DNA of 61,101 bases, counting the filler, from Basidiobolus ranarum (lineage: Eukaryota): the NCBI GenBank assembly GCA_040143965.1. It is 4 parts of 4 records of this genome, joined end to end, with 100 filler letters (N's around TTAATTAATTAA, not from the genome) between each part and the next. Parts side by side here need not be neighbours in the genome. Positions count along the whole stretch, not along the records: positions 45,943 to 61,101 come from JASJQH010007266.1; 3 more parts are not named here. One strand, 5' to 3'. Below are positions 3,566 through 61,101 of the stretch, in pieces. The notes under the pieces are model-generated. The model saw only the letters and a program-made list of their open reading frames with translations, was not told the origin of the DNA and ran no database searches. Numbering within the stretch: the stretch's first letter is position 1; each line of letters begins with the position of its first letter. The translations under genes and the position numbers were made by a program.

Positions 3566-3569
3566 CTTT

Positions 3570-7910: not shown

Positions 7911-7989
7911 CCAATAAGAGCCCTTTGTTGGAAGAATAACATACTCAGGAGTCTCCTCAACCCATCCACTACATCCATCATGGATTTTG

Positions 7990-18918: not shown

Positions 18919-18990
18919 GGCTCAGTGGTCTAGTCGTATGATTCCTCGTTCGGGTCGTGGAGGTCCCGGGTTCAATTCCCGGCTGAGCCC
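18919..18990 (+). tRNA. tRNA-Pro(CGG)
   Basis: GGCTCAG/CTGAGCC acceptor, CCTCG-TTCGGGT-CGTGG anticodon arm, GTTCAATTCC T loop, T-runs downstream. Confidence 0.93.
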
Positions 18991-19631
18991 TTAATTTTAA
19001 GTTACAATTTACTTTTTTGAACTGGTTTTTCTATTTGCAAGTTAATATTTTTGCATAATGTTTAAGAAAAAGGCGTTTAAGATATATATATTATATATTA
19101 ATATAGGTACGAGTGGCCATGATAGTTTCTATCTCCAAGCTGACTACTTTTGCTCATAGTTGAACCTCCCTATTTCTCTTGTATTTTCAATTTTATACAA
19201 ATTGTTACATGGCCAGACTACTGATTAGTTATATTATGATGAAATTTCAATGTGCCGAAAATTGAAAAGAAAGACACATTAAGTTATTATTCAAAATATT
19301 AGTACATAACTCTTTATTTAATGTAGCATCAATTGTGTTCAGCATCCTGGAGTCATCTGATCAAATGTTCTTTTGGTAATAAGAATGACTGTACTAAGTA
19401 GAGAAATGTTGCATCTTCAGAGAGTTTATAGATAGATAGACAGAATATGGGTAGTCACCCATATACCTGTGTTCTATTTAAACCCTACTAAATACTTCTT
19501 AGTATAAAATATGTTTGTGACAGTAACTCTGTGAGTAGTGTCAATCACGCAAGATTTTACTTTGCTTAACTACTAAATGTTTATGTTTTTCTATATAAGA
19601 TGAAGATTGAAGCTTAGTTTACTGTTGAATT

Positions 19632-27025: not shown

Positions 27026-27553
27026 GCTTGATGGTTAAGGAGGATTCAGCGTTTCATATTTCACAACTGCTCCTAAAGCATATGAGGTACTAGTTGATTC
27101 GAAAAGCCTTTGGGTTTCAAACCACAAAAAAAATAGTAATAAAACTTTAATCTAACTGGTTAACCATTTTTGATAAATCAGTTTGATCATATCTCGATTG
27201 GAGTAGCTGAATCTAGAAATTCCCGAGTTCAAAGTATTGAAAAAATGCTCTTGTGATCAGACTGAATTCAAAAACCATCAGACCAATCACATTGAAAAAC
27301 ACAGTACTTAATACGAGTTGCTGGTCCTCTTGTTTACCTTGAGCATTTATCGGGAAATCTGATCTGCCCTCTAATTCTCCGCGGTAATTCGGATGAGTAT
27401 GCCAAAAGAAAGTACCGTAGAGATTTGGGGTCCTTGAGATAAATATGGTATCAGATTTGCCATTGACTAAAGCATCATGAATTTAGTCTAACCTTACAGA
27501 GCGCTTTTTAAACCTTAGAGTTGGTTGAGAATATTGATAACATAGATTCCCAA

Positions 27554-31071: not shown

Positions 31072-32153
31072 TAAGCTTATTGATGATTTAAATTTCATAA
31101 CCAGCATTGCAGAATTCTTTATCAAGGTGCCGGAGAATACCTGTTTAGTAATCGATCGAAATATACACCAAATCTTTTACAAGTTTTTCATGATTTTATT
31201 ACGTTAGTGCCAAGTTGGATAGGCTTGAATGAAGACAACACTGATTAGAAATTAGATTTAAACAGCCCTTTACTTTCTTTTGAAAATTGATCACTTTTTA
31301 TACAGAGAAATATTTGATGATTTTGAATGATACTAAATAACATTTATCAGAATTTGAAGGGGCTTGAGATAAGAAACTTGGAATTGGGGATCAAACTTCC
31401 AGCTTTTGCACACCATGTCACCTAACTACTCTTGCCCCGACTCTCCAAAGTCAACATATCCGAGTGGTTTATACTTGAAAGCTGGCCTAATTACAATATG
31501 AATGTCGCTGAATAATTGTGAACTTTTTTCTTTCGGCCAATCTGAGCTTCAGTGGATGTGTCAGGGTTAATTACTGTTCTTGCTGATATTCCTGGGTAAA
31601 CTAGCTTGCTTCTGTTAGTAACTATCGAGATCACGTACCCTGTGTCTCCGAATAGCCAGAACTAAGTCAGCAAATCCACAAACGAAGATCCAGAAATCAT
31701 GAATATGAAACCAATCTAGATATGCTGTATCGACCAATCAATGTTTAGAAAAACCTGGAGATCATCACTCGATGAAAATAGGATCAATGCTCATGGAAAA
31801 CATGCCTAACCCTATGAACACATCAACTTCATCGAGTATCTAAGTCTGGCTAGCTCGAAACAAAAGTTGGTGGAATGAATAAAGAACAATCCGCAGAATC
31901 ACCAATTGCCACAAAAAGATGAAATATAGATGATTTCCGTTCCTGAATTGCATGGAGTGCCATATTTAAGCATCAGTCAATGGTGTTACAGCGCAATGTA
32001 GGTAACTGCGGTAGCCGGAAATGCTAAGGTATTTATTCTTTCAACCCACCCGCCAAGGCTATATAAAGCGTGCTCAAAAGTTTCTTACATAGCACGCTGG
32101 TTCATTATATAACTTCCACATCGCCTCTAAGCATCTTCCGCTTATCTACAAAT

Positions 32154-34163
32154 ATGAACGAGAAACAAGTGAAAACTAAGATCTTCCAAGAGGAAACTAT
32201 GAAAATGGTGCATCATTCCTATGGAGAGGAAAGCAAAAATCCAATATTTGAAGGAGATACTCTCAACACTATTTGGTCCCCTTTTACTTCACTATTTACG
32301 AGTGACCAGGTGAATATCGTATTAATGGCCTGGCTTCCATCTATGATATCCACTTCTGGGCATATAGCAGTGGATATGTTTTTAATTTCAGCACTGGTTG
32401 CAGGCCTTGTGGCACTATTGAAATTTGCTGGCCATATTTCAGCCAAAATGTTCAAGTTCAGAAGCGAAAAGAAAGCTGATTCTATCAGTATTCACATAGA
32501 ACCTGAGTTCATGGGACTTTACGAAGAACTTGAAATCAACACCCATCACAAGGCATTGTCTTGGCTTGTCTCTGAACAAAGCAAATTCCTATTGAAAGGA
32601 AACTTTTTAATGATTCCTGAGACTGGGAACCATCGTGATAGTGATGAAGAAGTACATGTTCCCAAGTTTACCGTTCTCCCACAAGATAACGAGAACCTGT
32701 TCATTTCTTTTAATAACGACATATTTAAAGTGTACTTCAAAGAATCCCCCGAGCAAGATAATCAAACAAAGGAGGAGGACAACAGAAATCGAACTTTTGA
32801 TGATGACAAGATCAAAAGCAAAGCCAAGGTCCTTCCATCAATTGTAGTTGAGCACTGTCCCAGTTTTGTATATCCGGACGGAACGAAGCCAACGAGCCGC
32901 AACCAGAATGTAACCAACGAAAAGCAAGAGTTGAGCAAGAGATTCTTGGATGACCCTGATTTTGCCATGAATAAAGTGATTGCTTTCATTCAAGCCACAA
33001 CAAGAGCGCATTTGATTGAGAATAAGTATGATCCCGCTCGTTCTAGATACGAAAGATCGACCTATGGATGGAGAATAGTACAAACACTCAGTCTAACCCG
33101 AGGTCTCAGCACGGTTTGTCTGGATGAAAGCAACGAAGTGTTATTAAAGCATGATTTGGATACCTTCTTGTCTGATAAAGATTTCTACCAACGAATTGGA
33201 CTTCCATACCGTCGAGGGATCTTGCTACATGGCAAGCCTGGCACTGGAAAGACATCACTCATCAATGCTATTTCCAGTGAGCTGAATCGCAACTTATATT
33301 TTATCAATCTAAAAGAGATAGACAGTGACTCCGCTTTGAATACCGCGTTCAACTCTGTTCCAGCAAATCAAATCATCGTGCTTGAGGATTGCGATACTCA
33401 AAGTAAGGTATTGCATGCTCGTAAACCCATTTCATCCGAGGATGAGTTTATGAAGAAACTAGGACCTGGTGTCGGTATTGGAAGTGGGGAATCATCGAAT
33501 AAGGTTGGGGGAGCTGAAGGATTCTTCAAGTTATTCTCATTGTCTACCTTCTTAGCAAATTTGGATGGGCATTCTCTTTCTGATGGTAATATCGTCATCA
33601 TGACCACCAATCACCCAGAGCTACTGGATCCTGCCGTGGTTAGACCAGGTCGCATGGATTTAAAGATTGAATTGGGCTACTGCACACATTATCAAATTCA
33701 AAATATGTACTCCTCCGTGTTGGAGGATCCTGAAGCAAGACTGGACGAAAAAATCCTCAAAGAAAAAGTCCCCGAAAGACTGCTTCCACCCTGCGAAGTC
33801 ATGACGTGCATGGTCTTGTATCGCCGTACACCGGAGGTTATACAGGATAAACTACTGGAATTAGTAGAGAAATTCCAGAAAGGTGCTAAATCTGTTATTG
33901 AAGAGGAATTGGAAAATAGAGCTCTCGAGGAGTTGGAAAATAAAATCCTCGAGGAAATCAAAGCCAGACAAAAAGATAAATCTTCTGAGAAAACTGCTGA
34001 AGAAAAGGAGAAAGCGAAAACGAAAGATCAAGTGAAAGTAGAAGAACCAACAAACAACAACAGTGCTGCTATCTCAATTGAGCAACCTCCCGAGATAACG
34101 GGGAATCACAAAACCCCCACCGATTCAGATTATGGGTCGGATACCGAGCGATTTGTCGGTTAA
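32154..34163 (+). CDS. BCS1-like AAA+ ATPase (intronless)
   Basis: FYQRIGLPYRRGILLHGKPGTGKTS (Walker A), IIVLEDCD (Walker B), LANLDG, TTNHPELLDPAVVRPGRMD; N-terminal hydrophobic helix. First ATG is at 32154. Confidence 0.93.
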   Translation: MNEKQVKTKIFQEETMKMVHHSYGEESKNPIFEGDTLNTIWSPFTSLFTSDQVNIVLMAWLPSMISTSGHIAVDMFLISALVAGLVALLKFAGHISAKMFKFRSEKKADSISIHIEPEFMGLYEELEINTHHKALSWLVSEQSKFLLKGNFLMIPETGNHRDSDEEVHVPKFTVLPQDNENLFISFNNDIFKVYFKESPEQDNQTKEEDNRNRTFDDDKIKSKAKVLPSIVVEHCPSFVYPDGTKPTSRNQNVTNEKQELSKRFLDDPDFAMNKVIAFIQATTRAHLIENKYDPARSRYERSTYGWRIVQTLSLTRGLSTVCLDESNEVLLKHDLDTFLSDKDFYQRIGLPYRRGILLHGKPGTGKTSLINAISSELNRNLYFINLKEIDSDSALNTAFNSVPANQIIVLEDCDTQSKVLHARKPISSEDEFMKKLGPGVGIGSGESSNKVGGAEGFFKLFSLSTFLANLDGHSLSDGNIVIMTTNHPELLDPAVVRPGRMDLKIELGYCTHYQIQNMYSSVLEDPEARLDEKILKEKVPERLLPPCEVMTCMVLYRRTPEVIQDKLLELVEKFQKGAKSVIEEELENRALEELENKILEEIKARQKDKSSEKTAEEKEKAKTKDQVKVEEPTNNNSAAISIEQPPEITGNHKTPTDSDYGSDTERFVG

Positions 34164-39806: not shown

Positions 39807-41691
<1,885 letters not shown>

Positions 41692-42902: not shown

Positions 42903-44278
42903 ATGATAGGACTAATCCTATTAGCAGTTGGTTGTTACTACTCCTTTACTAGTAAACCTGACCCTGATTCCTTCCGTAAATTTATTGCCGGCGGTGAAAG
43001 TAATGAACCCTCTAGTTCTAAAGGATGGTTTAGTAAAGTTGTTAGTAAATTCCGTAATGTTCCCGAGTTTCAATATCACGACTATTTACTCTTCTCCTAC
43101 GTGAGTCTATCCGATGGTAGTGCCCATTTTCTCGGTTGGGGAAATCGTTGGTGGCTACTTTCCAAATTATTGGATGGTAATTTAAACCCTACTACAGGAG
43201 AAGAGAAGAATTTGGTGAATACGTTGGATCTTGTTGAACTGGAAAAGGAAAAGGCTCATAAAGCTAAATTAAAGAAGAATTGTAAGTTTGCTTTTGCTTT
43301 GATAAATAGAGTTTATTTTCTAAAGTAGTGGTACATTTATAGATATTGAAGCTGCCCAGTTCTTCCTAAAAGCTTCGCAATTTTTAAAAGATCAAAAAGA
43401 TGAGGAGAGTACTTATGAACAAGCTGTATGCCTCGAAGAAGCTTATAAAGCCTTTAAACAGGGGAATCAACTTGGTAAAATATTTAAGAACAAAAGCTAT
43501 GATAATGTCTAGCTAAACCCATTATTATACTAAATAGAGAAAGGATTGAACTACCTTGAACAAGCAGCCAGTAAATTTGGTACCTCGACTCGAAGGGCCA
43601 CTCGTGGCGCTAGGTTGTACGATCAACTTGGTGAGCACTACAACTCTCTTGGTAAACGTAATCAATCGCGCCAAGAACTTGTTAAAGCATGTAAAATGTA
43701 TGAGAAAGCAGCTGAACTTTATGATATGGAAGGGGACAGGTTGGTCATTTGAAAATACTTCCAAATGATCTACAGGATATTAATTATGTGTGAATATTCA
43801 GCCGATCAGTATACTCCATCTCACATCAGGCTGAGTTAGCTAGCGAGCTGGGTCTTTATGAGGAAGCGATACATTCCTACGACAAGGTCATTTCAGTAGC
43901 ATCGGAAGATCGGTTACTCCAATTCAAATTGAAGGACTATTTAGTCTCGGCATGCCTTTGTGTACTAGCAAAAGATGGGTGGGAAGAGTTCACCAGTACC
44001 TTCCATCGCTACCAAGACCTCTATCCGGCATTTAACTCTGCTCGAGAATCGCAGTTATTGAACGTAGGTTTCCTCTCGATAGCATAGATACCTATATGTT
44101 TACTTAACCATACTTTCTTTTTACCGAATAGGATTTGATCCAAGCTAAGAGTGACTTTGATTTGGAAAAGTATGAAACGACACTTGCACGACATATTAAT
44201 TTAACCCCTTTACCCATCTGGCAGTCACATATACTTGACAAAGCCAAGACAGGAATCCAACAGGAGGATTTATGTTAG
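42903..44278 (+). CDS. Alpha-SNAP/Sec17-like protein with an extra N-terminal hydrophobic-anchor domain
   Basis: Exons 42903-43281, 43343-43474, 43538-43739, 43802-44063, 44132-44278 splice in frame. YEKAAELYDMEG, LLQFKLKDYLVSACLC, YQDLYPAFNSARE, W..IL.KAK..IQQEDLC*. Confidence 0.85.
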
Positions 44279-45942: not shown

Positions 45943-47968
45943 GTTAGTATGCAATAATCAATTCTCAGGGTTAGCATAGACATTCACTTACTCGAATTTG
46001 CTTGTCTTCTGCTCCGGTAGCCAAGAATTTTCCGTCAGGACTGAAGCATACAGATCTAATGTAAAGATCGCCTTCTCTGTTGGCTGCTTCATCTTGTAAA
46101 ACACTGAGAGACTGTAAGTTATAGTTGACCTCTGTCGATGTACAATAACCACTTTACCAAATCTTATTTCCACTTTGAACGTCGTATATTTGTGCACTTC
46201 TATTACAGCCGGTAGCCAAGTATTTACCATCGTTACTGAATCGAACACAGCAGACAACACTAAACATTCAACTTTAGATGGAATCCAATTAAAAATATCA
46301 ATAGCATTGTATATATAGATTAGTACCTGCTATGATCCAAAGTATGTGCTAGATCGACATTTAACTGGCGAGGGACTCGAGGGTTAAAGCTATTAGAGAA
46401 GATATATATTAGCAGACTGGAATGCGAAAGTTCAGAAAAATCGAAAACTTACATGGCAAACCAATCAGATCCTTCACGCTTAAGTCCAGAAGGAAGATTC
46501 TCAAGATCTACGTCGTTGAAACTGCCACTTGCAGAGCCAGGACCTTTAACGGATGGTACTCTCACCGGACCAGTTACAGATTGCTGCTGCTGAACTGATT
46601 GTTGGGAAGGAAGGCCACTATTGCTCGACTTTCGATTGATACCTTGAGGACTAGTATTAGGATATGGAGAAGCACCTTGAGGAGGACCTTGTTGAGACTC
46701 ATTCTGCATGCCCACAGGTGGTTGAGAAGGGAGTGGTCCTTGCTGGCCCATCTAATCCAATAGTAAAAATTAGTTAGGCAATACGACTACAACAGATATA
46801 CAGAATACTCACCGGAGTATTTTGCGGACCACCTTGCATATAACCTATGTATGTGGTAGAAAACACGCAAACGTGTAAGTTTTATTATATGTAATAAATT
46901 AACGATTATATAAGCTACCCATTGGTGACTGTCCAGGTCCTGGCCCCATCATCCCTGGCATTTGATTAGGTGGTTGGCCTGGCATTGGAGGTGAAGAAGC
47001 AGGAACAGAGCCGTACATAGAAGGTTGTTGCATTGGTGTTTGTGATTGACCTCCCATGTGGTGGGGTGGAGCATCAGAGTCCCCACGAAGTCTTTTATTC
47101 GGAGGCTGATGTCCACCTTGTTGAGGTGGTACCTGTTGTGGAGTGCCAGGAGGGCCACCGCTAGAATAAGCAGCTAAGCCGGGAGGCCCAGACCCAGGGC
47201 CTGGATATCCTGGGTGTTGAGGTTGTGGTTGTTGATTTGGATCCATCATTTGAGGGGGCGCTGCTAATGAATTGGGTCCATTTTGTGCTCCGCTCATGAT
47301 CCCACTAAAAAGATTTGAAGGGCCGTGACCAATATTGGGAGGTGTAGGTTGATGGGCTTGATGGGGTGTACCACCGCTTTGAGGATGAGAGCCGCGGGCC
47401 TCGAGCTCCCGACGAAGTCTTAGTATTTCTTCTTCATATCTTGTGATATATATATATATAAGAATACCACTTCAAAAGATATGGACACTATTATACAGAA
47501 TAGATAATCTCTTACTGTTGTTTAATTTTCTGGTGAGTTCTCTCGAGTTCGTATAGATTCTGCTGGAATCCGGTCATTTCGTTCAGTTGTGCGGAGACTA
47601 AAAATAGTAAAGTTGTTTAATTCTATTCACTCATTCAAATTAAACTTGACAAAGACAGATGAAGTTATCCAAAGCAAGATGTGAGTAATACAACATCTGC
47701 TTTGGAAGAATCGCAAACTACGCGTTTAAATAATATCGGATTATCTTTATAAACGCGTCGCTTCAAACGAAGCTTGAAATGAACTCAGAAGAGATTGAAG
47801 TATCGAAGTAAACTTACTTTTGTGTTCAAACTCGTCACGCTGCATTTTGAACATGGAAACATCTTGGTTCACTTGTTCAAACTCAACCTTTAAAGCATCA
47901 AGAAGCTCAGGAATTCTACTCCCGGCTCCGGCGGGAACCATTGGACGATGATTATAGATGTTTGACAT
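45943..47968 (-). CDS. TUP1: Transcriptional corepressor Tup1, 5' part (3' end off contig)
   Basis: Tup_N ([30 protein letters not shown]), P/Q/G-rich linker, [11 protein letters not shown]40 [20 protein letters not shown] and [26 protein letters not shown]; multiple introns. Confidence 0.96.
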
Positions 47969-49435
47969 CTCGTCGTTGAAGAAATTTACGTAAGCTAACT
48001 GTCAATGGATTTCAAACCTTGAATTTTGCGTCGCAAATTTGAAAGTCTAAGTCAAAAAAAATAGACAGCTTGATTTTTCTTTCAAGGAAGTAAGATAACA
48101 AAGATTAAACAAGCAAGGAGAACTCGGCACAGATATAAAAATATCCCTTTTAATGAATGATTTTTCACTGACCATTAGGCATTAAGGAGGGGGAATTGAT
48201 GACCCTTTAATTTCAGATGAGCTCGTAATATATTAATAGTATTGTTTTTATTCTATCGTGATTCAATATCGAATTTGTATTCTATAGTCAATATAAATAT
48301 CTTCAGCTCCGAGTCAGCGAATTGGTTTTGAAATACTGATACAACGTTGTTTGTCACTCTTATCATTTGACCATATATATTAATTGGTAATCCATTTTAT
48401 GTTGTCTCAAATAGCAGTGATGAAGTTTGTCTTTTAGCCAGTTTCACCAACACAAACCTTCAGTGTTATTACTGATGGTATACTTACTGGACATTTGTAC
48501 CATTCTTTACACAAGTTTCCTTTTCCAGCCTGAAGAGAGTAGATTTGGGAAACGGAACTCAACATAAATATATCACCTACTCTAATCACTAATCCAAATC
48601 ATTGAATTGGTCGACTTGAATTCAAACAACTTCAATCGAGATCTAGATCAAACACTGCAACTGACACTGAGCCAAGTGGATACAATAGCATATAATGACT
48701 AGCGCTCTTGTTCTAATGCATACATACTAATGAGACAGCATTTATTCATATTTGACATGAGATCGCGCGTTTCTTTGTGACCTCAAACATCTTAGTTGCT
48801 GATATTTTATCAAGTACTTTAAGTACGGATTACCGGAAAAAGGTATTGTGAGTGAGCTTATATCTACAAAATGAGCTGTTCACAGGAGTTCATGATGAGC
48901 TCCTTTTTTCTATCGTTATGTTACAAAATGATCCGTCAGTCTCACGCTCAACGATAAAGTAGTTAACTCGGAAATATATGTCTAATTACGACTTTGCTAA
49001 TAACCATGTTGATGGAATATAAATGCTCTTGTGTTGACAGCAAAGCTACGTACTTTACCATCACAATACCTTGTAACGGATATTCTTTCTAGCTAACCAT
49101 GAACCCACTCAATAGTGTGGCAGTTAGAAATATGCTTGAAAGTATTTTGGATCAAGAATGTCAACTCGTAATTCATTTTTTCTTTCCAGTCTGCATGATT
49201 TTCGTTCGCTCAGCCTTTCGATAAGGTAGCTGTACTAGAACACTATACTGCACGCTACATCTTGCGGTTTTCCAAATAAATAATGAATATATGTATCATA
49301 TATAATGGTTACCAGACATGTCGGTCCTAACATGTTTAATGTGAAATTATGTGTACATAAAGAATGAAATACAAGTGACAAAAAACCTGTCACTAGCTTT
49401 CAATTTGAAATTCAAAAAACAGTTTTGCAGAAGAA

Positions 49436-50012
49436 CTATGCGGTAGGTTTAGTTTTCTTGACCTTCTTTCTTTCTTTTTTCTTCAGAGCGTCCATCTGCA
49501 CCTTCATGATGTTACCATATGCGTCGAGAAACTTTTCAAAGTCATTTGGTTGAACCTAAGGGAATAGATACAACTGTAAGTAAGTATTGTAGTGAATCTT
49601 AGCGAAATAGTAACACTACCAAAGTACTGATCTTGGCATTTCCGCAGCTGGCTCGAACTAAAGTAGAATACTCCGTTTCTTCGGTGACTTCGATGGTACT
49701 TCCCTTCTTTTTAGCTTCGTGATCGACTATGACAAAGGAAAATCATAAAATTAGCATTAGATTATAGGGAAGAAATTATCATGAAAAAAGTTTACATCTC
49801 TTCATATTTAGGTAGACAGTTCCAGAAGTCTTCGATTTTTCAAAGAATCGAGTGACTTGTGTGAGAAACTAGAACAACATTAGCTAGGCATCGATGAAGA
49901 GTCCAACATAACTTTGACAAGGATTAAACTAAAACTCATCTAAAAGCATTCATTGCGAAAAGGAAAAAATTAAAGAACTATTGAACTATACCGAATTATT
50001 ATCAACGAGCAT
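49436..50012 (-). CDS. SRP14: Signal recognition particle 14 kDa subunit
   Basis: Spliced: MLVDNNS | FLTQVTRFFEKSKTSGTVYLNMKR | ..LVRASCGNAKISTL | VQPNDFEKFLDAYGNIMKVQMDALKKKERKK..*. Confidence 0.9.
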
Positions 50013-50327: not shown

Positions 50328-51504
50328 TCAATCATCCTCCATTTCCTCATTCAGAGATTCCTGCACAAGTATTAATACAGTTAGTAGGTTGTTTACAGGA
50401 ATAAAGTGGCGGTTGCTCACCTTTGCAAATCTTTCGGCCTCCACAACTAGATCTTGGGGGACAAATTGATGTTTGCCTTGGGTTTCTTCCGAGACCCAGG
50501 AGAGCTCTAGTTCGAAATCCCTATCTTTAGCCTCGTCATGTGCGGTGTAAATGCTGTATGCAGAGGCGAGATCAGTATATTATTGAATTATGATATCGAA
50601 TTAAATCATGGGAATTTACATTCTTGCTGCCTCCTTTATGGCTTCACGCACAGTCATTTCTTCCAATTTGAGTTTTTCAATCTCAGTCTTGGCCACTTGC
50701 CTTCCTTTACCAACAGCACAGCCATGGTATCCCTAATATAAGGGTTAATGATAATGAAGGTGAGAGATCGAATCAATGCTCACGAACCCAGTATACCCCA
50801 GAGGGCTCAATCATATAAAGTTGAGGTCCGTTTTCATCTATAAGACCAAGAATTGTGCTACAACCAAAAGGTCTAACGCTAGAATACAAAGTGTATGCTT
50901 GGATATATGAACCAACACGATCGGCAATCATCTGTTGGATTATCAGTATACATCTGTCAGAAACGTCGAATAAAAAGAGGAGAATATCATCAAAGTCCTA
51001 CTTTTCCTGAGATAGGGACCCTATAGTTGTCACGATAGCTTTGCGCCTCTTCTCTGGCCCTGTTTACGATATGTCTGGCATCCGCAATAAGACCGGCAGT
51101 GGCCTATGTCGATGTGAAATTCAGTACTGTGTCACGATTAGCCTTTTCAACTGAAGATGCATACCACGCCAATATGTTTATCCACGGTTTGAATTCGTTT
51201 GTTGGATCCAGGTACCAACAGTTTGGATTGAATAATTTTCTCGACAGCAAAAACGACGCCATCCTTTACTCGTAAGCCAATGACGGTACTAGGTACATTT
51301 CTATAAATACGGGGTTTTTACTGATATTAGCAGGAAGAATTACCCGCTATTATCAACTGCTTTGCCAGCGTATTCAACTTGAAAGACTCGGCCATCGGGT
51401 GAATATGTGCTTACTGATAAGTCGTACTGAATAAAACCGTTTACTATAGAGCTCAAGTATCGAAAAGGAATAATATAACTTACGCCAGTTCCGATAGAAG
51501 TCAT
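50328..51504 (-). CDS. PRE10: 20S proteasome subunit alpha-7
   Basis: MTSIGTG | [20 protein letters not shown]..; [34 protein letters not shown]; multi-exon. Confidence 0.96.
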
Positions 51505-52183
51505 ACTGTAGGATTGACTGCTTGCTAAGGAGATAGGAATGAAATAATACACGGGTTTTCCCTCTAGTATCTAGCTGACTTCCAGTATGTAAAACTTGAT
51601 TACGACATCTAAATACCCTAAATATTTAGGGGAGTCATATAATGGAAAGCTACGTCAATGCTCAGACTAGAAATTCTCAGAAACATCTAAATTTAAGCCA
51701 AATATCATTCTGATGTCCTCGTACGTAATAACTGAGATTTATTTTAACTGCCATACTTCTTATTTGAGCGATGATTTTGATGAGCCACGAACTTGATATT
51801 TACAACTTACTCCTTGTCATAAAGGTCGAATCAGGACCGCCCACGCTGATATAAAATTTATTGTAGGGATTTTACTAACTAGTTCAGATTTGTTTAAACT
51901 ACTCCAAGTGCATCTTACGTTAGCTCGAAATATTATTTTTCCCCTGCCAACCTTAACAATTTTCGTTAGTTGCTGTGGCGAGCTTGAACGACACATTACA
52001 TTTCAAAACCTCACCTAGACTACATTTCAGTTCGACTTTAGAAATCACAGGTATATATATCTTTTTATTAACTAGATTTGTATCTCTTAATCTTATTCCT
52101 ACAGTACAGTAAACAGATGAAAAAAAACTAATCCACATTTCCTCATTCTACAATTGTATCTAGTGAATCCTTCTTGTGACAAA

Positions 52184-55100
52184 ATGTCCAACGCGCCCCC
52201 CAATAATTATCCCCCACCACCAGGCCAATCTCGGTCTCCAAGACCTCCTATGTCTGGTGCCCCTCCCAATTTCCCGCCATCAGGACAGAACCAATCTCCA
52301 AGACCTCCTATGGCTGGTTCTCCACGACCCCCTATGGGCCAGCCTCAGCGCTCACCTAATATGGGAGGAGCAAGACCACCAATGAATGGACCACGTCCTT
52401 CATCTCCTTTTCCTCCTCAAGCTAAGCCGGGTCCTGGTTATTCTCCAATGCCACCCAACTCTCAGCCATATGGCCAAGCTGGGTCCCCACCTCTCAACAT
52501 GAGACCTTCTCCTTATAATGCTGCTTCTCCTTCTTTCAATCACCAAAATCCAGTTGCTAATTTACAACATAAACCTAGTTCTCCAGGTCCGCAAAACCAG
52601 ATGCCTCCAAGACCTATGTCGCCTCCTCTCCCTCAAGCACCACAGCCTGGTCCTGGTCAACCTGGCTTGATGCAGCGACAATTCGTTCCACCCGTGGGTG
52701 GAAGATCTCCTGTGATGCAAGGTGCTCAGGTACCTTCACCTCGTCCACCCATGCATAGTCCTACGACTCAGCAGTTGAATCCTCAACAACAAATCCAATC
52801 CCCGCAACTTAACAATTTTGTGTCAACTCAGCCTGACCCTACTGCACCTCCTGGCTCACCGCCTGGTAACGCCAGCAGCCCAGGACAACGCAGAAGAATG
52901 TACCCTGATCAAATAGCTACTGCTTATACTCAAGGCGAGGCACCTCAGCAATCTAACTATCCTGGACCTGCTTCAGGTCAATCTGACCCCTTACCTGGAG
53001 CTCAAGGTTCTCAGTTCTTTGTACCAGGCCTCCAAGGGCAAACATCTCCAGTGATGGGCTATGGCCAGCCACAAACCCCTGGTTATACCAGTGGGCAACC
53101 TTATGGGCAACAGTTTAATAATATGCAAAATCAATTTAATAACATGGCACTTGGTGGTCAAAACCAACTCTTCCATACACCATTGATGGGAACTCCTCTC
53201 AATCCTGCCGAATTGGACCTTCCACCTCCAGCTGCCAATATCCCTCCCGGTTCTGCTGTAACCCAATCACCCAAAATTATTTGCGATCCTTCTCTTAAAC
53301 GTTGCACTTTCAATGCTATTCCTCAAAACTCTAATTTATTGAAAAAATGCAAGATTCCGTTCGGTTTGATTATGACCCCTTACAAACTTGATAAGCAAAA
53401 CCCAGATGATATCCCCATATCTCACGAAATTATTCGTTGCCGTCGATGCCGTACATACTTAAATCCCTTCATCCAATTTGTTGATAGTGGTCGTCGTTGG
53501 AAGTGTAACATGTGTTTCTTCACAAACGATGTTCCTAGCACCTTCGACTACGATATTCAGAGTCAACAACCCATCGATCGTTTCCAGAGACCGGAGTTGA
53601 CTCATTCTGTAGTTGAGTATATTGCTCCAGCGGAGTATATGGTACGCGCTCCTCAGCCCCCTGTTTATTTGTTCTTGATTGATGTATCTCATACTGCGGT
53701 ACAATCTGGTATGGTCGCTACCGCTGCCAGAACCATCTTGGAATCTTTGGATCGTATTCCTGATGAAGAGAAAAGAGCCAAAGTTGGTTTTATAACCTAT
53801 GATAGTGCTCTACACTTCTACAACTTGAACAATGAACTCTCTGAACCACAAATGCTTGTTGTATCTGATTTGGAAGATCCATTCATCCCCATGCCCAATG
53901 ATTTGTTAGTTAACCTTGGTGAAGGTCGTCACATTGTGGAGTCTTTACTTTCACGACTCGGCGAAATGTTTAAGAGTACCCATAATGTCAGTAGTGCTCT
54001 CGCACCCGCTCTCCAAGCTGGTCTTAAACTTATTTCCTCTATTGGTGGTAAAATCATTGTGTTGCAAAATACTTTGCCTACTGCTAAGGAAGGTGCTTTG
54101 ACCGTTCGTGAGGACGTTAAACTTCTAGGCACACCAAAAGAGTCTAGTTTGTTGCAACCTGCCTCTCAATTCTACAAGCCTTTCGCCGTTGACTGTTCTC
54201 GTGCTCAAGTTTGTGTAGATACTTTCTTGTTCGGTACCCAGTATATCGATGTTGCTACTCTAAGTGGTACATCACGCTTTTCAGCCGGCCAAACATATTT
54301 CTATCCTGGTTTTAATGCTGGAAAATCGGAAGATGCTGTAAAATTCGCAAACGAATTCTCCGAATTTTTGTCTTGCCCTGCTGGTCTAGAAGCTGTTTTG
54401 AGAGTCAGAGCCTCTAAAGGATTGAGAATGACTGCCTACCATGGAAACTTCTTCTTGAGATCGATGGATCTTCTTGCTCTTCCTAACGTCACACCCAACC
54501 ACACCTATAGTGTTGAAGTTACCATTGATGAGCCAATTGAGACTAGCATTGTTTGCTTCCAAACTGCTTTGTTGCATACTAGCTGTAATGGAGAAAGACG
54601 AATTAGAGTATTAACTCTTGGTTTACCAGTTGCGAACAACATCTCTGAAGTATTCAAATCGGCAGATCAAGTGGCCATTGTTACTCTTTTGGCTAGGAAA
54701 GCAGTGGAAAGATCATTAAGCACTAAACTAGAGGATGCTAGAGACGCTTTAATCAACAAATGTATCGACATTCTTGGTATTTACAAGACCGAGCTAACAT
54801 CTGTTGGAACTGGTGCCTCTCCACAGTTGCAAATATGTCATAATTTGAAGATGCTTCCTTTGCTGGTACAGTCACTCATTAAGCATGTATCCCTTCGTGG
54901 TGGCTCTCAAACTCCCAGTGACGTTCGCTCATTTGCCATGAACCTCGTCAACACTATGCCAGCTGAACTTTTAATGAGATATATCCACCCTAGATTCTAC
55001 GCTCTCCATAATATGGCACCAGAAATTGCGGTTCCTACAACCGATGATTCAGCCATCTTGATGCCACAACCTTTACCTTTGAGTAGTGAAAGATTAGAGC

Positions 55101-55468
55101 GTAATGGATTGTTCTTGTTGGAGAGTGGACAACACATATTCTTCTGGGTTGCTAAAGAGGTATCACCTCAGCTTTGCCAAGAATTATTTGATGTTCCATC
55201 ATATGACGCCATCCGACCCGGCCGTACCACCCTTCCTATCCTTGATACTGATTTCTCTTCTCGTGTTCAACTCATCATTTCCAAGATTAGAGAAGCCAAC
55301 AGATATATCTATTATCCTCAAGTTTATGTTGTTAAAGAAGAGAGTGATCCTTCTTTGCGACTCTGGTTCCTTTCCCATCTGATTGAGGATCGCGCAAACA
55401 ACGTTATGAGTTATCAACAGTTCTTAAACCACCTGAAAGATAAAGTGAATACCGGTAATTTCAAATAA
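52184..55468 (+). CDS. SEC24: COPII cargo adaptor Sec24
   Basis: Pro/Gln-rich N-terminus, RCRRCRTYLNP..WKCNMC zinc finger, trunk FLIDVS, EAVLRVRAS beta-barrel, helical and gelsolin domains; intronless CDS. Confidence 0.97.
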   Translation: MSNAPPNNYPPPPGQSRSPRPPMSGAPPNFPPSGQNQSPRPPMAGSPRPPMGQPQRSPNMGGARPPMNGPRPSSPFPPQAKPGPGYSPMPPNSQPYGQAGSPPLNMRPSPYNAASPSFNHQNPVANLQHKPSSPGPQNQMPPRPMSPPLPQAPQPGPGQPGLMQRQFVPPVGGRSPVMQGAQVPSPRPPMHSPTTQQLNPQQQIQSPQLNNFVSTQPDPTAPPGSPPGNASSPGQRRRMYPDQIATAYTQGEAPQQSNYPGPASGQSDPLPGAQGSQFFVPGLQGQTSPVMGYGQPQTPGYTSGQPYGQQFNNMQNQFNNMALGGQNQLFHTPLMGTPLNPAELDLPPPAANIPPGSAVTQSPKIICDPSLKRCTFNAIPQNSNLLKKCKIPFGLIMTPYKLDKQNPDDIPISHEIIRCRRCRTYLNPFIQFVDSGRRWKCNMCFFTNDVPSTFDYDIQSQQPIDRFQRPELTHSVVEYIAPAEYMVRAPQPPVYLFLIDVSHTAVQSGMVATAARTILESLDRIPDEEKRAKVGFITYDSALHFYNLNNELSEPQMLVVSDLEDPFIPMPNDLLVNLGEGRHIVESLLSRLGEMFKSTHNVSSALAPALQAGLKLISSIGGKIIVLQNTLPTAKEGALTVREDVKLLGTPKESSLLQPASQFYKPFAVDCSRAQVCVDTFLFGTQYIDVATLSGTSRFSAGQTYFYPGFNAGKSEDAVKFANEFSEFLSCPAGLEAVLRVRASKGLRMTAYHGNFFLRSMDLLALPNVTPNHTYSVEVTIDEPIETSIVCFQTALLHTSCNGERRIRVLTLGLPVANNISEVFKSADQVAIVTLLARKAVERSLSTKLEDARDALINKCIDILGIYKTELTSVGTGASPQLQICHNLKMLPLLVQSLIKHVSLRGGSQTPSDVRSFAMNLVNTMPAELLMRYIHPRFYALHNMAPEIAVPTTDDSAILMPQPLPLSSERLERNGLFLLESGQHIFFWVAKEVSPQLCQELFDVPSYDAIRPGRTTLPILDTDFSSRVQLIISKIREANRYIYYPQVYVVKEESDPSLRLWFLSHLIEDRANNVMSYQQFLNHLKDKVNTGNFK

Positions 55469-55934
55469 GAGCACTCGGATCTCAACCTTCCCCACGTAAC
55501 TTTCAGTATGAATGAATATTTTTACCCTTAGTTTCATTATCAATTGTTTGCTCGTTCACTAAAGAAACCTTTTTTTTTAAATTTCCTCAACAATACCATC
55601 CTTCACCGCTTGTACGTTATATGAAATAATTTTACATTATATTTATCTTTCTTAAATCGGAATACACTACCACAAAATTGAGGAATGTTCGATACGAAAA
55701 CAAGTAATATAAGTAGTATTGAGGGGTTTTTTTTGAGAAGTACTGAATTTGATTTCCCTTACAATGTTTAGTAAATGGATACCATTTCTTTAGTGTGTTT
55801 GCTATTTGATCGTACAATTACAAATAAATCAATTGTTTTCAGATTGTGTGCTGTGTATTCAAAACAATCAAGTAATATATATATATATATGGAATTGATT
55901 GTTATGGTTACCTTGGTCTAAATCAAAAAAAAAG

Positions 55935-56007
55935 CGAGGCGCATGGGACTCGAACCCACAATCCCCAGATCCGAAGTCTGATGCCTTATCCATTAGGCCA
56001 ACGCCCC
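55935..56007 (-). tRNA. tRNA-Arg(TCG)
   Basis: GGGGCGT/GCGCCTC acceptor, TCAGA-CTTCGGA-TCTGG anticodon arm, GTTCGAGTCC T loop, T9 terminator. Confidence 0.95.
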
Positions 56008-56316
56008 TCGTGATAATTATCAGGTAATCCAAATAACAATGGTTATATTTTGTTGATCGTAGTAATTAAGAACATAGTAATCCAGTGGAAGTAAATGGCA
56101 AAAAATTTCTTCAAAGTCACAAAACCTTAACATATCTTCATTAAAATTCCTACCAAACATGGTTACAAGCCGTAGTTATTTGTTCGAAAATAGCGGATTT
56201 ATCTTATCAAGGAAAATGTTACATTATTGATTGACCTCGACTCCGCATTAATGTCGAAAGTAAAGCGAAATCACCATGCAAACCGATGTTACTCTTTTGA
56301 ACATCCGCCATCATGG

Positions 56317-56415
56317 ATGAGTCATAGGATAGTCTTCATTCAAAGTACTCTCGTGACTTGATGGCCTGAGGGGACACAAAGGTCTTATTTCGTTTTTAAA
56401 TAGTGACTGAGTCAC
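56317..56415. promoter_or_regulatory. Gcn4/CpcA-type sites upstream of ILV6
   Basis: ATGAGTCAT at 56317-56325; TGAGTCA at 56408-56414 inside the palindrome GTGACTGAGTCAC. Confidence 0.75.
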
Positions 56416-56610
56416 ATCGGGTCAACTAAGATAGATCATCACTCTAATAGGTAAGTGGGTAACCTAGGATAATGATACCTAGCTGGACGGTATTTTCATG
56501 AGTAGGGGATAAGGGAGGGGCTAACTACAATTTGTGAGTAGTATTAAAGTGCTTGAGGTCCCACTTGATCGGTAGTTTCTCGGTTTTTTCTTTCAGTCTG
56601 CACTGTTGCA

Positions 56611-57601
56611 ATGCTTTTTAGCCATTTAGCCATTGCCACTAGGCAGAAAAGTATTCAGGCATTGGTATGTTATTTGATGCACTTTCATTGTGCTTACATA
56701 TTTGTCATATTAAATTGGTTTGTCTAGCGGTCTGTTCAACCTCGTGTTTGCTTGCCAACTACACAATGCTTCTATTCTTCTGCACCAACAAAGCGTCAAC
56801 CACGTAGCCAAAAACTCCCACCGCTACCTACTATACCTACTTTAACACCTGAAGAAGCTGTTACTAACATAATCTACAATACCCCTACACCGCCTTCAGA
56901 CCCACCCACTCGACACACTCTGAACTGTCTAGTTCAGAATGAGCCTGGTGTTTTATCTCGTGTTTCTGGTATTTTAGCAGCCAGAAGCTTCAATATTGAT
57001 TCTTTGGTCGTCGCCAAAACTGAAGTTAGAGATCTTTCCCGAATGACCATCGTTTTAAGAGGCCAAGATCAAAATATTGAGCAAGCCAAGAAACAACTTG
57101 AGGACCTTGTTCCTGTTTGGGCTGTATTGGATTATTCCCATACCCAAATTGTTGAGCGTGAACTTTTATTAGTCAAAGTATCTATCTTCGGTCCTGATCA
57201 TGAGCAGGCCATTTTCGAAGATGCCGTGCACCCTCATGTAAGTGACTAGTGAGTCTGCTTACCTTGATACATATACTAATTCCTTCCACCAATAGGTTGA
57301 CATGTCTCCTGGGGAAATTCTCCTGACCACCCACAAGCACCTCCAAGCTATACAAGAGCTCACCAAACTTTTCCAAGGGCAGATTGTTGATGTTAGTAAT
57401 GAGAGTGTGATTGTTCAACTCTGCGCAAAGAACGCACGTATAGATGCATTCATGAAGCTCATTAAGCCTTTCGGGGTCTTAGAAGCAGCTAGAAGCGGTA
57501 TAATGGCCATGCCTCGAGCCATACATTTGCATGCTGAAGATGAAACAGAGACTCTAGAGGAGGCTGTTCAAGTTGATGCTACCATGCTTCCTCCTGGCTA
57601 G
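56611..57601 (+). CDS. ILV6: Acetolactate synthase regulatory (small) subunit, mitochondrial
   Basis: Exons 56611-56664, 56728-57237, 57296-57601. HTLNCLVQNEPGVLSRVSGILAARSFNIDSLVV, EAARSG, C-terminal LPPG*; basic transit peptide. Confidence 0.96.
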
Positions 57602-58069
57602 TTAATTTTCCTCCCACCCTCCTATGTATAGCGACATTCGCATAGCTCACACTAGTAATGGCACTGTTAAATTTATCGAAACCAATACACAATCTCATCC
57701 CCTTTAATCTGTGTTTCAATAAAAATATTCAAAGTAGAGCTTGTAATTATCAGTAGCTAGTGTTCACGTGAAAGCCCATGATTCCTAAAGCAAAGGCAAA
57801 TATGCATGTGACATTCCAATCCGAAGATTCAACCGAATATCCAAATGGCTTTTGCTCTCTCTCCAGCCCCCTCCCCATAAGTTACAGACTGTTACTCATC
57901 CTTGCCCCAGCAATGGTGCTAGGGTTAGGGTATAAACTAGAAGAACCACCTAATTTTAGTAAGAAGGTTGATTACAGGCCACGCGCAGTATCACTCATCT
58001 CTTACCTTGTATAGCTACAATCCTGCTCTCAATTTGCAAGAATGATTGAACGCCGTGGGAAACCATTCG

Positions 58070-58393
58070 TGAGTCAACATTGGTCAGCCAGAGTAATTCT
58101 ACCCGAAAACAAGCAGCGTTTCGTTGGGTGAATGTCAAGGTGACTCACGAAGACGGTAAATATGATCGGTAAGAATACAGATTAGGCATTCATTCAGTTT
58201 CTCCCTCATGTGAACCAAAACTATCTCCAGTAGTACAGTGTAACATGTATATTGATATCTGTTTCTAGTTTGTCTCCATGATTGATTGTAGATTATACAT
58301 AGCCAGTAACGACTTTTGAATGGCAAAGCTAAAGCTATCACATTGTGATTGTGTAATTGCAGAGACAAATAAGCAGTAATCAGAATGACTCAC
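58070..58393. promoter_or_regulatory. Gcn4/CpcA-type sites upstream of ILV2
   Basis: TGAGTCA at 58070-58076, TGACTCA at 58141-58147, ATGACTCAC at 58385-58393. Confidence 0.75.
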
Positions 58394-58673
58394 ATATGTT
58401 AATTGTATGATCAATATAAACTTTAGAAACGCAATTTATGTGGCCAAGGCTAAATCACTGTATATTCTAAACGTCACGAATTATCCAGATCGAAAAAAAT
58501 CTCTGTAGATGCCCTATAAATGTATTCCATCTCACTTGACGAACTTGCACCAATTTTATTTCGGATCTTCTGTTCTAGAGTTCGCGACTCCAAAAGTGTA
58601 CCAGACTATCTTTTCAATACATACATACTGATATCAACGCCTCAATTTTGACTTTCTGCTACACTCACAAAAT

Positions 58674-60723
58674 ATGCTCTCCTCAAGGTTTACCTCTCAG
58701 ATGCGCCAGCGCGCGCCCATGTTCTTGGCCGCAACAAAAAGATACATGCCTGCTACATGCTATCAGGGCCTAAATCGCTTCAAAAGTACCACCAGGTTTG
58801 TAGCACTTCCTACTTGATATATTTCGCTTGAGGCATTTTTTACTGACCTATTTTGTATTACACAGTACACGCCCCTCTCACGACATTCCTGCCACCTCAA
58901 CTACACCCTTAAGTGATCTTCACCCTGAGCCACTAAAGACCGTTGAACATCCGACTCATGAAAATTCATTCGTTGGAATGTCTGGTGGTGAAATATTTCA
59001 CGAAATGATGCTTCGTCATAATGTTGAACACATCTTTGGCTATCCTGGCGGTGCCATTCTTCCCGTTTTCGACGCTATTCACGACTCAAAGCACTTCAAC
59101 TTCATCTTACCTAGACATGAACAGGGTGCTGGCCACATGGCAGAAGGCTATGCAAGAGCAACCGGTAAACCTGGTGTGGTTCTTGTAACCTCTGGACCTG
59201 GTGCCACTAATGTCATTACCCCTATGCAAGATGCTCTCTCTGACGGTTTACCATTGGTGGTGTTTTGCGGTCAAGTTCCCACAAGCGCCATCGGTACTGA
59301 TGCTTTCCAAGAAGCCGATGTAGTAGGTATTTCTAGATCATGCACCAAATGGAATGTGATGGTCAAGGATATCAACGAACTTCCACGTCGTATTAACGAA
59401 GCATTTGCGATTGCAACTTCTGGTCGTCCTGGCCCTGTGTTGGTGGACTTGCCTAAAGATGTTACAGCTGGTATCTTAACCAAACCCATACCTATCAAGT
59501 CATCGCTACCCACTCGCCCTTGGAATCTCCATTATGATCCAGAAAAGATCAACGAGTCCATCAAGAAGGCAGCTAAAATGGTGAACGAAGCCAAGACTCC
59601 AGTTATCTATGCTGGAGCTGGCTTATTAAATCATCCCGATGGCTCAGCTCTTCTAAGAAAGTTTTCTAATGACGGTAATATTCCTGTAACTACCACTCTA
59701 CAGGGACTAGGGTTGTACGATGAATTAGACGAGAAGAGTTTGCATATGCTTGGAATGCATGGATCAGCCTATGCCAATTTAGCTATCCAATCCGCCGATG
59801 TTATTATTGCACTCGGAGCTCGCTTTGATGATCGTGTCACATTGAACCTCAAGAAATTCGCCCCAGTAGCTCAGCAAGCAGCTCTCGATGGTCGTGGAGG
59901 TTTCATCCATTTCGAAATCATGCCTAAGAATATCAACAAGGTCGTTCAAGCCACTGAGGCCATTGAAGGAGATGTCACTGAAAATCTGGCTAAAATGCTG
60001 CCAATGATTAAACAAGTCAACCGCGATGGTTGGTTCAGTAAGATAAAGACATGGAAACAAAAGTATCCATTTGTGTACCCTAGCGATGCTCCTGAAGGAA
60101 AAATGAAGCCACAAGCAGTTCTTGAGGAACTCAATCGTCAACTTGAGCCTCTCAAAGAAAAAACCATCATCACCACCGGAGTAGGTCAACATCAAATGTG
60201 GGCCGCACAATACTTGCGCTGGAGACACCCCAGAACCTTTATCACATCTGGAGGATTGGGCACGATGGGATTCGGTCTTCCAGCTGCCATTGGTGCTAAA
60301 GTAGCCAAGCCTGATCACATTGTCATCGATATCGATGGAGATGCATCATTTTCTATGACAGGTATGGAGCTCGCTACTGCCGCTCAATACAACATTGGAG
60401 TTAAGGTTCTCATTATGAACAACGACTTCCAAGGCATGGTGAAGCAATGGCAAGATCTTTTCTATGAAGAAAGATATTCAGGAACTGTGATGCACAACCC
60501 CGACTTTGTGAAACTGGCTGAAGCAATGGGTTGCCGAGGCATGAGATGTGATAACATGAAAGATTTACCAGGCAAGATAAAGGAGTTCTTAGAGTGCCCC
60601 GATCCAGTTGTATTCGATGCTCGTGTAGATAAAGCCGAACATGTGTATCCTATGGTACCAGCTGGTAAAGCTCTGCATGAGATGGTCTTGGAGAAATCAC
60701 TCATCCTGGATGAATCCAATTAA
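58674..60723 (+). CDS. ILV2: Acetolactate synthase catalytic (large) subunit, mitochondrial
   Basis: Exons 58674-58795 and 58866-60723. FGYPGGAILP, RHEQGAGHMAEGYAR, GQVPTSAIGTDAFQE, RFDDRVT, ThDP motif DGDASF..NN, GMVKQWQ. Confidence 0.97.
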
Positions 60724-60890
60724 ATTAGTTCTTTCTTGCATTCCGTTCATTAATACACCTTGATCTTTCCACCCTCACCAGTACTCCTTTCGTATATTAT
60801 ACATACATTCAACCTCGTCAACATCTATGCATCCATGTTTAAACAATCACCCTAATAAAACCATATATACATATATAACCTCGTTGAACG

Positions 60891-60980
60891 TACAAGTAGC
60901 GTGAAAATTAATAGCAGTTCTAACAACAATACATATACAAGTAGCGTGAAAATTAATAGCAGTTCTAACAACAATACATA
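60891..60980. repeat. Exact 45-bp tandem duplication
   Basis: TACAAGTAGCGTGAAAATTAATAGCAGTTCTAACAACAATACATA x2. Confidence 0.95.
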
Positions 60981-61020
60981 TTTAAAATGTTGTTGAAATC
61001 TCGTAGCATGCTTTTTCTTA

Positions 61021-61073
61021 TCAACTCTCACCACCTTCATAGAACTCAATACGATGATAATACTCACCATCAC
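61021..61073 (-). CDS. Probable terminal exon of an unidentified convergent gene
   Basis: ttctattag acceptor followed by (x)DGEYYHRIEFYEGGES*. Confidence 0.45.
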
Positions 61074-61101
61074 CTAATAGAAATATAGTATCATACCAGG
61101 C

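Follow-up and report, generated by a model that had tools for sequence, protein, structure and literature searches.

Why do the genes for the two subunits of a single enzyme, acetolactate synthase, lie side by side in the fungus Basidiobolus ranarum? The subunits are a textbook pair, and a valine-sensitive mitochondrial holoenzyme is established for the family. In Saccharomyces cerevisiae the genes for the catalytic subunit (ILV2) and the regulatory subunit (ILV6) are unlinked, on chromosomes XIII and III, and are under Gcn4 control. Basidiobolus has the same two proteins, with a (predicted) mitochondrial location and promoter elements of the TGASTCA type, as in S. cerevisiae, but differs in that its two genes are neighbours. 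We analysed this arrangement in a stretch of 61,101 nucleotides of the B. ranarum genome, filler included (the window, below), for which a preliminary description made from the sequence was available.

Structure of the ILV6 and ILV2 genes

Both genes lie on the + strand and were read from the sequence as follows: ILV6, the acetolactate synthase small (regulatory) subunit gene at 56611..57601, has three exons (56611-56664, 56728-57237 and 57296-57601) and two introns (56665-56727, 63 nt, and 57238-57295, 58 nt), ends in a TAG stop codon and encodes 289 aa. ILV2, the large (catalytic) subunit gene at 58674..60723, has two exons (58674-58795 and 58866-60723) and one intron (58796-58865, 70 nt), ends in a TAA stop codon and encodes 659 aa. 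All three introns have GT..AG borders, and the genes are arranged in tandem, head-to-tail, with 1072 bp between the ILV6 stop codon and the ILV2 ATG. The spliced ILV6 translation is identical, letter for letter, to the 289 aa B. ranarum protein deposited as KAK9711639.1 (P0526), and that of ILV2 is a 100% match to the 659 aa protein KAK9711640.1 (P0001); these two proteins have consecutive accessions (KAK9711639/640) on one 15159-base contig. The preliminary description of two adjoining genes, 1072 bp apart and each with introns, is exact. The 100% match of ILV2 identifies the source as B. ranarum; the pair is nuclear DNA, and both genes are intact.

The identity of the two proteins is clear from their domains. 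The ILV6 exons match the Pfam families ACT_AHAS_ss (PF22629, in exon 2) and ALS_ss_C (PF10369, in exon 3) and score 140.8 and 74.2 bits against TIGR00119, above its cut-off of 56.9, as expected of an acetolactate synthase small subunit. All three thiamine-diphosphate enzyme domains (TPP_enzyme_N/M/C; PF02776, PF00205 and PF02775) were found in ILV2, which scores 769.9 bits against TIGR00118 (equivalog cut-off 538.35) over model positions 1-556 of 557, and it is by these measures a biosynthetic acetolactate synthase large subunit. The mitochondrial-type leaders noticed at the outset are borne out in composition: the first 50 residues contain 8 R+K and 0 D+E in ILV6, and 8 R+K and 1 D+E in ILV2, and these basic N termini are compatible with a mitochondrial presequence on each protein. 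The C terminus of ILV6 is LPPG, and the view that this ending is of fungal type agrees with its presence in 15 of the 17 ILV6 proteins from fungi that were aligned.

The spacer and the two promoter regions

The spacer (57602..58673, + strand, 1072 bp), which would hold the 3' end of ILV6 and the promoter of ILV2, contains no ORF that matches Pfam and no Rfam family. On its + strand lie a candidate polyadenylation signal, AATAAA, at 57718..57723, 117 nt 3' of the ILV6 stop codon, and a candidate TATA box, TATAAA, at 58515..58520, 154 nt 5' of the ILV2 ATG. Because AATAAA follows ILV6 and TATAAA precedes ILV2, the two genes are most likely separate transcription units, as far as such signals can be read from DNA. 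The ILV6 promoter region is limited on its 5' side by a tRNA-Arg(TCG) gene (55934..56007, - strand), besides which an Rfam search of 55500-61101 found nothing.

Both promoter regions contain motifs of the Gcn4/CpcA type (TGASTCA; no strand is assigned to them). Upstream of ILV6, TGAGTCA occurs at 56318..56324 and 56408..56414, 293 and 203 nt 5' of the ATG, respectively. Upstream of ILV2, TGAGTCA occurs at 58070..58076 (604 nt 5' of the ATG) and TGACTCA at 58141..58147 and 58386..58392 (533 and 288 nt 5' of it). Five of the ten TGASTCA sites in the window are thus found in two promoter regions that together amount to 1674 bp, or 2.7% of it (binomial P = 3.5e-6, a post hoc value); over the window as a whole there is no excess of the motif (10 found and 11.1 expected). 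Of Leu3-type sites (CCGNNNNCGG) the window has a single one, at 47922; none occurs near the pair or in its promoters.

Relatives of the two proteins

The best 120 matches to each subunit were collected, and trees of ILV2 and of ILV6 were built, as the preliminary description had suggested. The named proteins among these matches are all fungal, with 66-92% identity for the best of them. Both trees follow fungal taxonomy, Basidiobolus is monophyletic in each, and the ILV2 and ILV6 of the window are sister to the linked copies of B. meristosporus (below). ILV6 and ILV2 are ordinary, vertically inherited fungal genes with spliceosomal introns.

Linkage in other fungi

NCBI numbers proteins in contig order, and linkage in other genomes was judged from the order of accessions and from contigs of equal size, not from DNA read. 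By accession order the B. meristosporus genes are consecutive (ORX99927/ORX99928) on one 176536-base contig, and those of Thamnocephalis (RKP08818/RKP08820) share a 30442-base contig. In four species of Mortierellomycotina, ILV2 and ILV6 are two to three accession numbers apart on the same contig: Podila clonocystis (in two assemblies), Actinomortierella ambigua, A. wolfii and Linnemannia elongata (a MAG). Their contigs are equal in size in Podila verticillata, in both assemblies of P. horticola and in another assembly of A. ambigua. Contigs of unequal size carry the two genes in 12 Mucorales species, 7 Glomeromycotina, Calcarisporiella, Dimargaris cristalligena and the chytrid Borealophlyctis, and this is also true of the second copies of the two genes in both Basidiobolus species. 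The same was seen in six Mortierellomycotina, in which the assemblies are fragmented and there are paralogues. An apparent linkage in Paraglomus brasilianum was rejected: an ILV6 fragment (P0122) and the ILV2 of this species are both on 10512-base contigs, but the fragment is not close to the Paraglomus ILV6, which sits on a 16198-base contig.

Metagenomes were scanned with a fungal ILV6 alignment, which gave 80 loci, and these were searched by tblastn for ILV2, with five fungal sequences of it as queries and the window as positive control. ILV2 was found in none of the 80 loci, many of which are only ~1 kb long, and in 0 of the 26, mostly Dikarya-like, that are flanked by 5 kb or more on a side. 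The best matches of most loci are Dikarya references, and many loci are this short; we therefore take the scan as a negative control of Dikarya type. The only Mortierellomycotina-like locus (L033) has ILV6 adjoining leuB, and the Bifiguratus protein P0074 is a merged ILV2+leuB gene model.

The preliminary description had reckoned with a linkage absent from all relatives, and thus due to chance; accession order indicates instead that the genes are linked in B. meristosporus, Thamnocephalis and Mortierellomycotina. On this genome comparison the ILV6-ILV2 adjacency is more than chance would give: B. meristosporus has it too, and two further lineages show close linkage of the genes. By the same measure the linkage is patchily distributed among early-diverging fungi.

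The published precedent is Mortierella alpina, for which a 2022 paper (PMC8880518) describes the clusters ilvB-ilvF1-ilvE1 (large subunit, small subunit, reductoisomerase) and ilvF2-ilvE2-leuB1, in whose promoters it finds no Leu3-type CCGN4CGG sites. M. alpina and Basidiobolus are alike in being early-diverging fungi with large and small subunit genes on one contig and in the absence of Leu3-type sites from the promoters concerned. The Basidiobolus pair has both the closeness of a cluster of the M. alpina type (one contig, 1072 bp) and, by accession order, its conserved linkage (ORX99927/ORX99928 in B. meristosporus). The published M. alpina cluster, however, includes ILV5 and runs large-then-small, whereas in Basidiobolus two genes are seen, small-then-large, with nothing between them. 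No ILV5 domain was found in ORFs of at least 85 aa in the window, which ends 378 bp after ILV2, nor in ORFs of at least 45 aa in 34200-56600, the 22 kb on the 5' side. The accessible text of PMC8880518 yielded no mention of linkage in Basidiobolus or Zoopagomycota, and apart from that paper full-text searches of the literature found no statement on ILV2-ILV6 linkage; PMC11127833 was discarded as a linkage report, its word "adjacent" concerning only a PAM site. The pair is thus less novel than first supposed, in view of the published M. alpina cluster and of the public annotation, in which the two genes already stand as neighbours.

Explanations for the linkage

The above observations are in our judgement likely to mean that ILV6 and ILV2 are separately transcribed, co-regulated fungal genes of vertical descent, placed in a patchy neighbourhood of branched-chain amino acid genes and kept there for a benefit of linkage. 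Each gene would be transcribed from its own TGASTCA-rich promoter region, and upon amino-acid shortage a general amino-acid control factor of the Gcn4/CpcA type would induce both together. The two precursors would then be imported into mitochondria by means of their basic leaders and, from what is known of the family, would assemble into the valine-sensitive holoenzyme. The pair would be part of a neighbourhood of branched-chain amino acid genes in early-diverging fungi, and selection has probably kept the linkage because two subunits that are needed in matched amounts are then co-expressed in balance and inherited together. The GAL, DAL and nitrate assimilation clusters of fungal primary metabolism are likewise neighbours from one pathway that are transcribed separately and distributed patchily, but they comprise successive pathway steps, not two subunits of a single enzyme.

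How did the linkage arise? Two or three independent gains, selected for co-regulation or dosage balance, are a serious candidate that we would put somewhat short of an even chance. The patchy distribution speaks for such gains, as do the differing arrangements, with direct adjacency in Basidiobolus and one to two genes between elsewhere; the joining of two specific genes is rare, yet three such events would be needed. It is also possible, though we say so tentatively, that the ancestor of Zoopagomycota and Mucoromycota had an ILV2, ILV6, ILV5, LEU2 neighbourhood that was later broken in most lineages. This would account for linkage in Basidiobolus, Zoopagomycotina (Thamnocephalis) and Mortierellomycotina together with vertical trees for both proteins, and it fits the other branched-chain linkages of Mucoromycota (ILV6-leuB in locus L033, the Bifiguratus model P0074 and the M. 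alpina clusters), but it requires at least four independent losses (in Kickxellomycotina, Mucoromycotina, Glomeromycotina and Dikarya), the spacing varies by lineage (0, 1, or 1-2 genes between), and the sampled chytrid is unlinked.

Neutral adjacency, that is, a chance rearrangement in the Basidiobolus lineage that has no regulatory effect and was kept as the two sequenced species are close, we consider improbable. The genes are apart in most fungal groups examined, the 26 metagenome loci with long flanks lack ILV2, and each gene has a promoter-like region of its own, all of which would suit a chance event; by our own estimate, however, two genes at most three positions apart in about ten thousand are expected at only ~5e-4 per lineage, and close linkage is present in three separate lineages in addition to the M. 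alpina cluster published in PMC8880518. That an assembly misjoin created a false adjacency is highly improbable, given the same two proteins on one 15159-base contig in the public record, the same order in the independently sequenced B. meristosporus, and a stretch from one gene to the other that shows neither a repeat nor a shift in composition.

The gain of a bacterial ilvBN-type operon by horizontal transfer can be set aside as extremely improbable. The pair does resemble the bacterial ilvBN, ilvIH and ilvBNC operons in that catalytic and regulatory genes adjoin on the same strand and encode proteins of the same families (TIGR00118 and TIGR00119), and Basidiobolus reportedly carries many transferred genes, to judge by the title of one study. 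Such operons, however, run large-then-small in one transcript, have no introns and show bacterial affinity, whereas the Basidiobolus order is reversed, three spliceosomal introns interrupt the pair, signals resembling those of a promoter and of a poly(A) site lie in a 1072-bp spacer, each protein carries a leader of the mitochondrial presequence type, the named best matches of both are all fungal, and both trees place Basidiobolus among the fungi. The introns, presequences, fungal matches and fungal trees thus uphold the original proposal of eukaryotic clustering and no transferred operon.

Significance of the pair

In terms of comparative genomics, the ILV6-ILV2 pair is a sound, if modest, finding. 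Eukaryotes seldom show stable linkage of the two subunit genes of a housekeeping enzyme, and Basidiobolus and Thamnocephalis join a pattern that until now was in print for Mortierella alpina alone. That the pair is a remnant of a very ancient ILV2, ILV6, ILV5, LEU2 neighbourhood, which selection would have preserved in Basidiobolus, Zoopagomycotina and Mortierellomycotina over hundreds of millions of years, we regard as rather unlikely; a bolder idea, that the M. alpina order (large, small, reductoisomerase) still reflects the ilvBNC operon of a bacterial gene donor, is very unlikely. If the linkage is ancestral, it would rank among the most ancient metabolic gene neighbourhoods conserved in fungi, and it would also serve as a natural test of whether linked subunit genes gain a balanced expression. 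For early-diverging fungi in general, the prediction is that ILV6 and ILV2 would be governed by general amino-acid control and not by Leu3.

The ILV6 and ILV2 genes

When the sequence is read against stop-to-stop frames, the region 56611-60723 contains two protein-coding genes on the + strand: ILV6, with exons at 56611-56664, 56728-57237 and 57296-57601, and ILV2, with exons at 58674-58795 and 58866-60723. Three introns, of 63, 58 and 70 nt, interrupt them, each bounded by GT..AG. The spliced ILV6 translation is identical to the 289-aa database protein P0526 (acetolactate synthase regulatory subunit, Basidiobolus ranarum), and that of ILV2 is identical to the 659-aa protein P0001 (acetolactate synthase, mitochondrial, B. 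ranarum). The preliminary description had placed the two genes next to one another, and the gene models and deposited proteins agree that this is correct; the 1072 bp that it gave between the genes is exactly what separates the ILV6 stop codon from the ATG of ILV2.

The AHAS small-subunit ACT domain lies in ILV6 exon 2 and the ALS_ss_C domain in exon 3, and the ILV6 exons score 140.8 and 74.2 bits with TIGR00119, both above its cut-off of 56.9. All three thiamine-diphosphate enzyme domains lie in the large ILV2 exon, which matches positions 1-556 of the 557 in TIGR00118 at 769.9 bits (cut-off 538). Residues 1-50 include 8 R+K and 0 D+E in ILV6 and 8 R+K and 1 D+E in ILV2; such basic, nearly acid-free N-termini fit putative mitochondrial presequences. 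The LPPG C-terminus is common to 15 of 17 aligned fungal ILV6 proteins.

Ancestry of the pair

The closest ILV2 match is that of B. ranarum (100% identity), with B. meristosporus second at 92%, followed at 66-73% identity by Mortierellomycotina, Entomophthora, Thamnocephalis, Mucorales, chytrids and Dikarya. All named matches among the 120 listed are fungal, and a search with the ILV6 exon gave the same pattern. Rapid maximum-likelihood trees, built from 44 ILV2 and 52 ILV6 proteins hand-picked from the match lists, recovered the major fungal groups (Basidiobolus, Zoopagomycotina, Kickxellomycotina, Mortierellomycotina, Mucoromycotina, Glomeromycotina and Dikarya). In each tree the linked B. 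meristosporus copy is the sister of the window's protein, and linked-gene lineages form no grouping that contradicts taxonomy. A transferred bacterial operon is ruled out because the trees and matches are fungal and both introns and leaders are present, which bears out the earlier proposal of a eukaryotic clustering; the trees and match lists also give no sign of transfer of the pair between fungi. ILV6-ILV2 is a real, vertically inherited and conserved two-gene neighbourhood, and it is not an operon.

Second ILV2 and ILV6 copies are present in both Basidiobolus species (database proteins P0390, P0389, P0418 and P0419). The second ILV2 copies are about 90% identical (90-93%) and the second ILV6 copies are more diverged (58-72%); they lie on contigs of unequal size that are not those of the pair. 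In the trees all Basidiobolus copies are monophyletic within the genus.

Linkage in other fungi

In NCBI genome submissions, protein accession numbers follow contig order. Linkage elsewhere was judged indirectly, from these accession numbers and from the size of the contig carrying each protein, where the recorded size is that of the longest contig of a 90% cluster, so multi-member clusters can mislead the comparison. The two proteins are on one 15159-base contig in B. ranarum (ILV6 KAK9711639.1, ILV2 KAK9711640.1), a 176536-base contig in B. meristosporus (ORX99927.1 and ORX99928.1) and a 30442-base contig in Thamnocephalis sphaerospora of the Zoopagomycotina (ILV2 RKP08818.1, ILV6 RKP08820.1). 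Podila clonocystis has KAG0032815/818 on a 32624-base contig and KAG0028314/317 on a 41787-base contig. Accession proximity indicates linkage in Actinomortierella ambigua (KAF9975826/824), A. wolfii (KAG0236974/976) and a Linnemannia elongata MAG (KAK3840598/595), and the contigs are equal in size in Podila verticillata (40195), P. horticola (128265 and 86876) and a second A. ambigua assembly (53779).

Contigs of unequal size were found in 12 Mucorales species (Halteromyces, Cunninghamella echinulata, C. blakesleeana, Absidia repens, A. glauca, Hesseltinella, Radiomyces, Lichtheimia hyalospora, Backusella, Phycomyces nitens, P. blakesleeanus and Sporodiniella), 7 Glomeromycotina (Geosiphon, Gigaspora rosea, G. 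margarita, Diversispora eburnea, Paraglomus brasilianum, Funneliformis geosporum and Rhizophagus irregularis), Calcarisporiella, Dimargaris cristalligena and the chytrid Borealophlyctis. The same holds for six Mortierellomycotina (Podila humilis, Lunasporangiospora, Mortierella sp. AM989, Mortierella sp. GBA39, Linnemannia schmuckeri and M. antarctica), which are not decisive because of fragmented assemblies and the presence of ILV6 paralogues. Scanning metagenomes with a fungal ILV6 alignment yielded 80 loci, most with best matches to Dikarya references; flanks of 5 kb or more were present on one side in 26 and on both in 14, ILV2 was found in 0 of the 80, and the window was recovered as a positive control.

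Two explanations of the linkage have roughly equal odds: one ancient origin followed by several losses, or clustering that happened repeatedly. Chance alone is unlikely to lie behind the linkage, because three lineages show it.

Genomic surroundings

Upstream of ILV6 is a tRNA-Arg gene (55934-56007, - strand). Beyond it, domain searches of ORFs identified a Sec24-type gene (52121-55468, +), proteasome alpha subunit exons (50776-51570, -), an SRP14-like exon (49602-49742, -), a Tup1-like repressor gene with Tup_N and WD40 domains (45974-48001, -), alpha-SNAP (43534-44084, +), a protein kinase (40442-41270, +) and an AAA ATPase (32067-34160, +), all ordinary housekeeping neighbours. The window reaches only 378 bp beyond the ILV2 stop, so the neighbour search covers the upstream side; it found no further branched-chain amino acid genes among ORFs of at least 85 aa in the whole window or of at least 45 aa in 34200-56600.

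A long exon 27 kb upstream of the pair (27512-29434, +) encodes a Zn2Cys6 transcription factor (Zn_clus and Fungal_trans domains), with no evidence tying it to ILV regulation. Farther away are mobile-element remnants, namely a weak Transposase_21 match (6896-7567, -), a copia-type reverse transcriptase (RVT_2) fragment (11191-11592, -) and an integrase core fragment (12649-12915, -), and genes for tRNA-Ser(AGA) (13-85, +) and tRNA-Pro(CGG) (18918-18991, +). The ILV2 3' flank carries a perfect tandem duplication (60891-60981; 45-nt unit, 2.0 copies, 100% match) that starts 168 nt after the stop.

Putative promoter motifs

The spacer contains AATAAA 117 nt past the ILV6 stop and TATAAA 154 nt ahead of the ILV2 ATG, and it matched no Rfam family. 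Gcn4/CpcA-type factors have the heptamer TGASTCA as their core site. The whole window contains it 10 times against 11.1 expected from shuffles, so there is no overall excess. Five of the ten sites are in two short regions upstream of the ILV6 and ILV2 starts, two in the 602 bp between tRNA-Arg and the ILV6 ATG and three in the 1072-bp spacer. These regions make up 1674 bp, 2.7% of the window (binomial P 3.5e-6, for an enrichment spotted post hoc and not a planned test), and the concentration is a numerically strong lead. Neither region has Leu3-type sites (CCGN4CGG), and in PMC8880518 the M. alpina ilv and leu promoters are likewise reported without them.

These motifs, with what is known of the family, suggest separate promoters: ILV6 and ILV2 would be two transcription units, both co-induced by Gcn4-type general amino-acid control, and linkage may bring a benefit.

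Branched-chain gene neighbourhoods

PMC8880518 describes two M. alpina clusters, ilvB-ilvF1-ilvE1 and ilvF2-ilvE2-leuB1. The first comprises IlvB (large subunit), IlvF (small subunit) and IlvE (reductoisomerase), all three on contig ADAG01000936. Beyond that paper, full-text literature searches turned up nothing on ILV2-ILV6 linkage, and nothing for Basidiobolus or Zoopagomycota.

One Mortierellomycotina-like metagenome locus, L033, has 86% identity to a Benniella ILV6, and its order at 797-8255 is a 3-hydroxyisobutyryl-CoA hydrolase-like gene (ECH_2), ILV6 and a 1033-aa open frame. This frame has a leuB domain (TIGR00169, 419.9 bits, cut-off 353) and an aconitase / isopropylmalate dehydratase-family domain, and may represent either a fusion or a pair of genes that no stop separates. 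The 905-aa deposited model P0074 from Bifiguratus adelaidae (Mucoromycotina) joins ILV2 (residues 8-582) to leuB (581-904), and the two are probably tandem neighbours in that genome. Both cases are consistent with a broader neighbourhood of branched-chain genes in Mucoromycota.

The ILV6-ILV2 linkage belongs to a known but little-noticed kind. It is in print for M. alpina; in Basidiobolus the genes are directly adjacent, small subunit then large, and the linkage now extends to Basidiobolus and Thamnocephalis.
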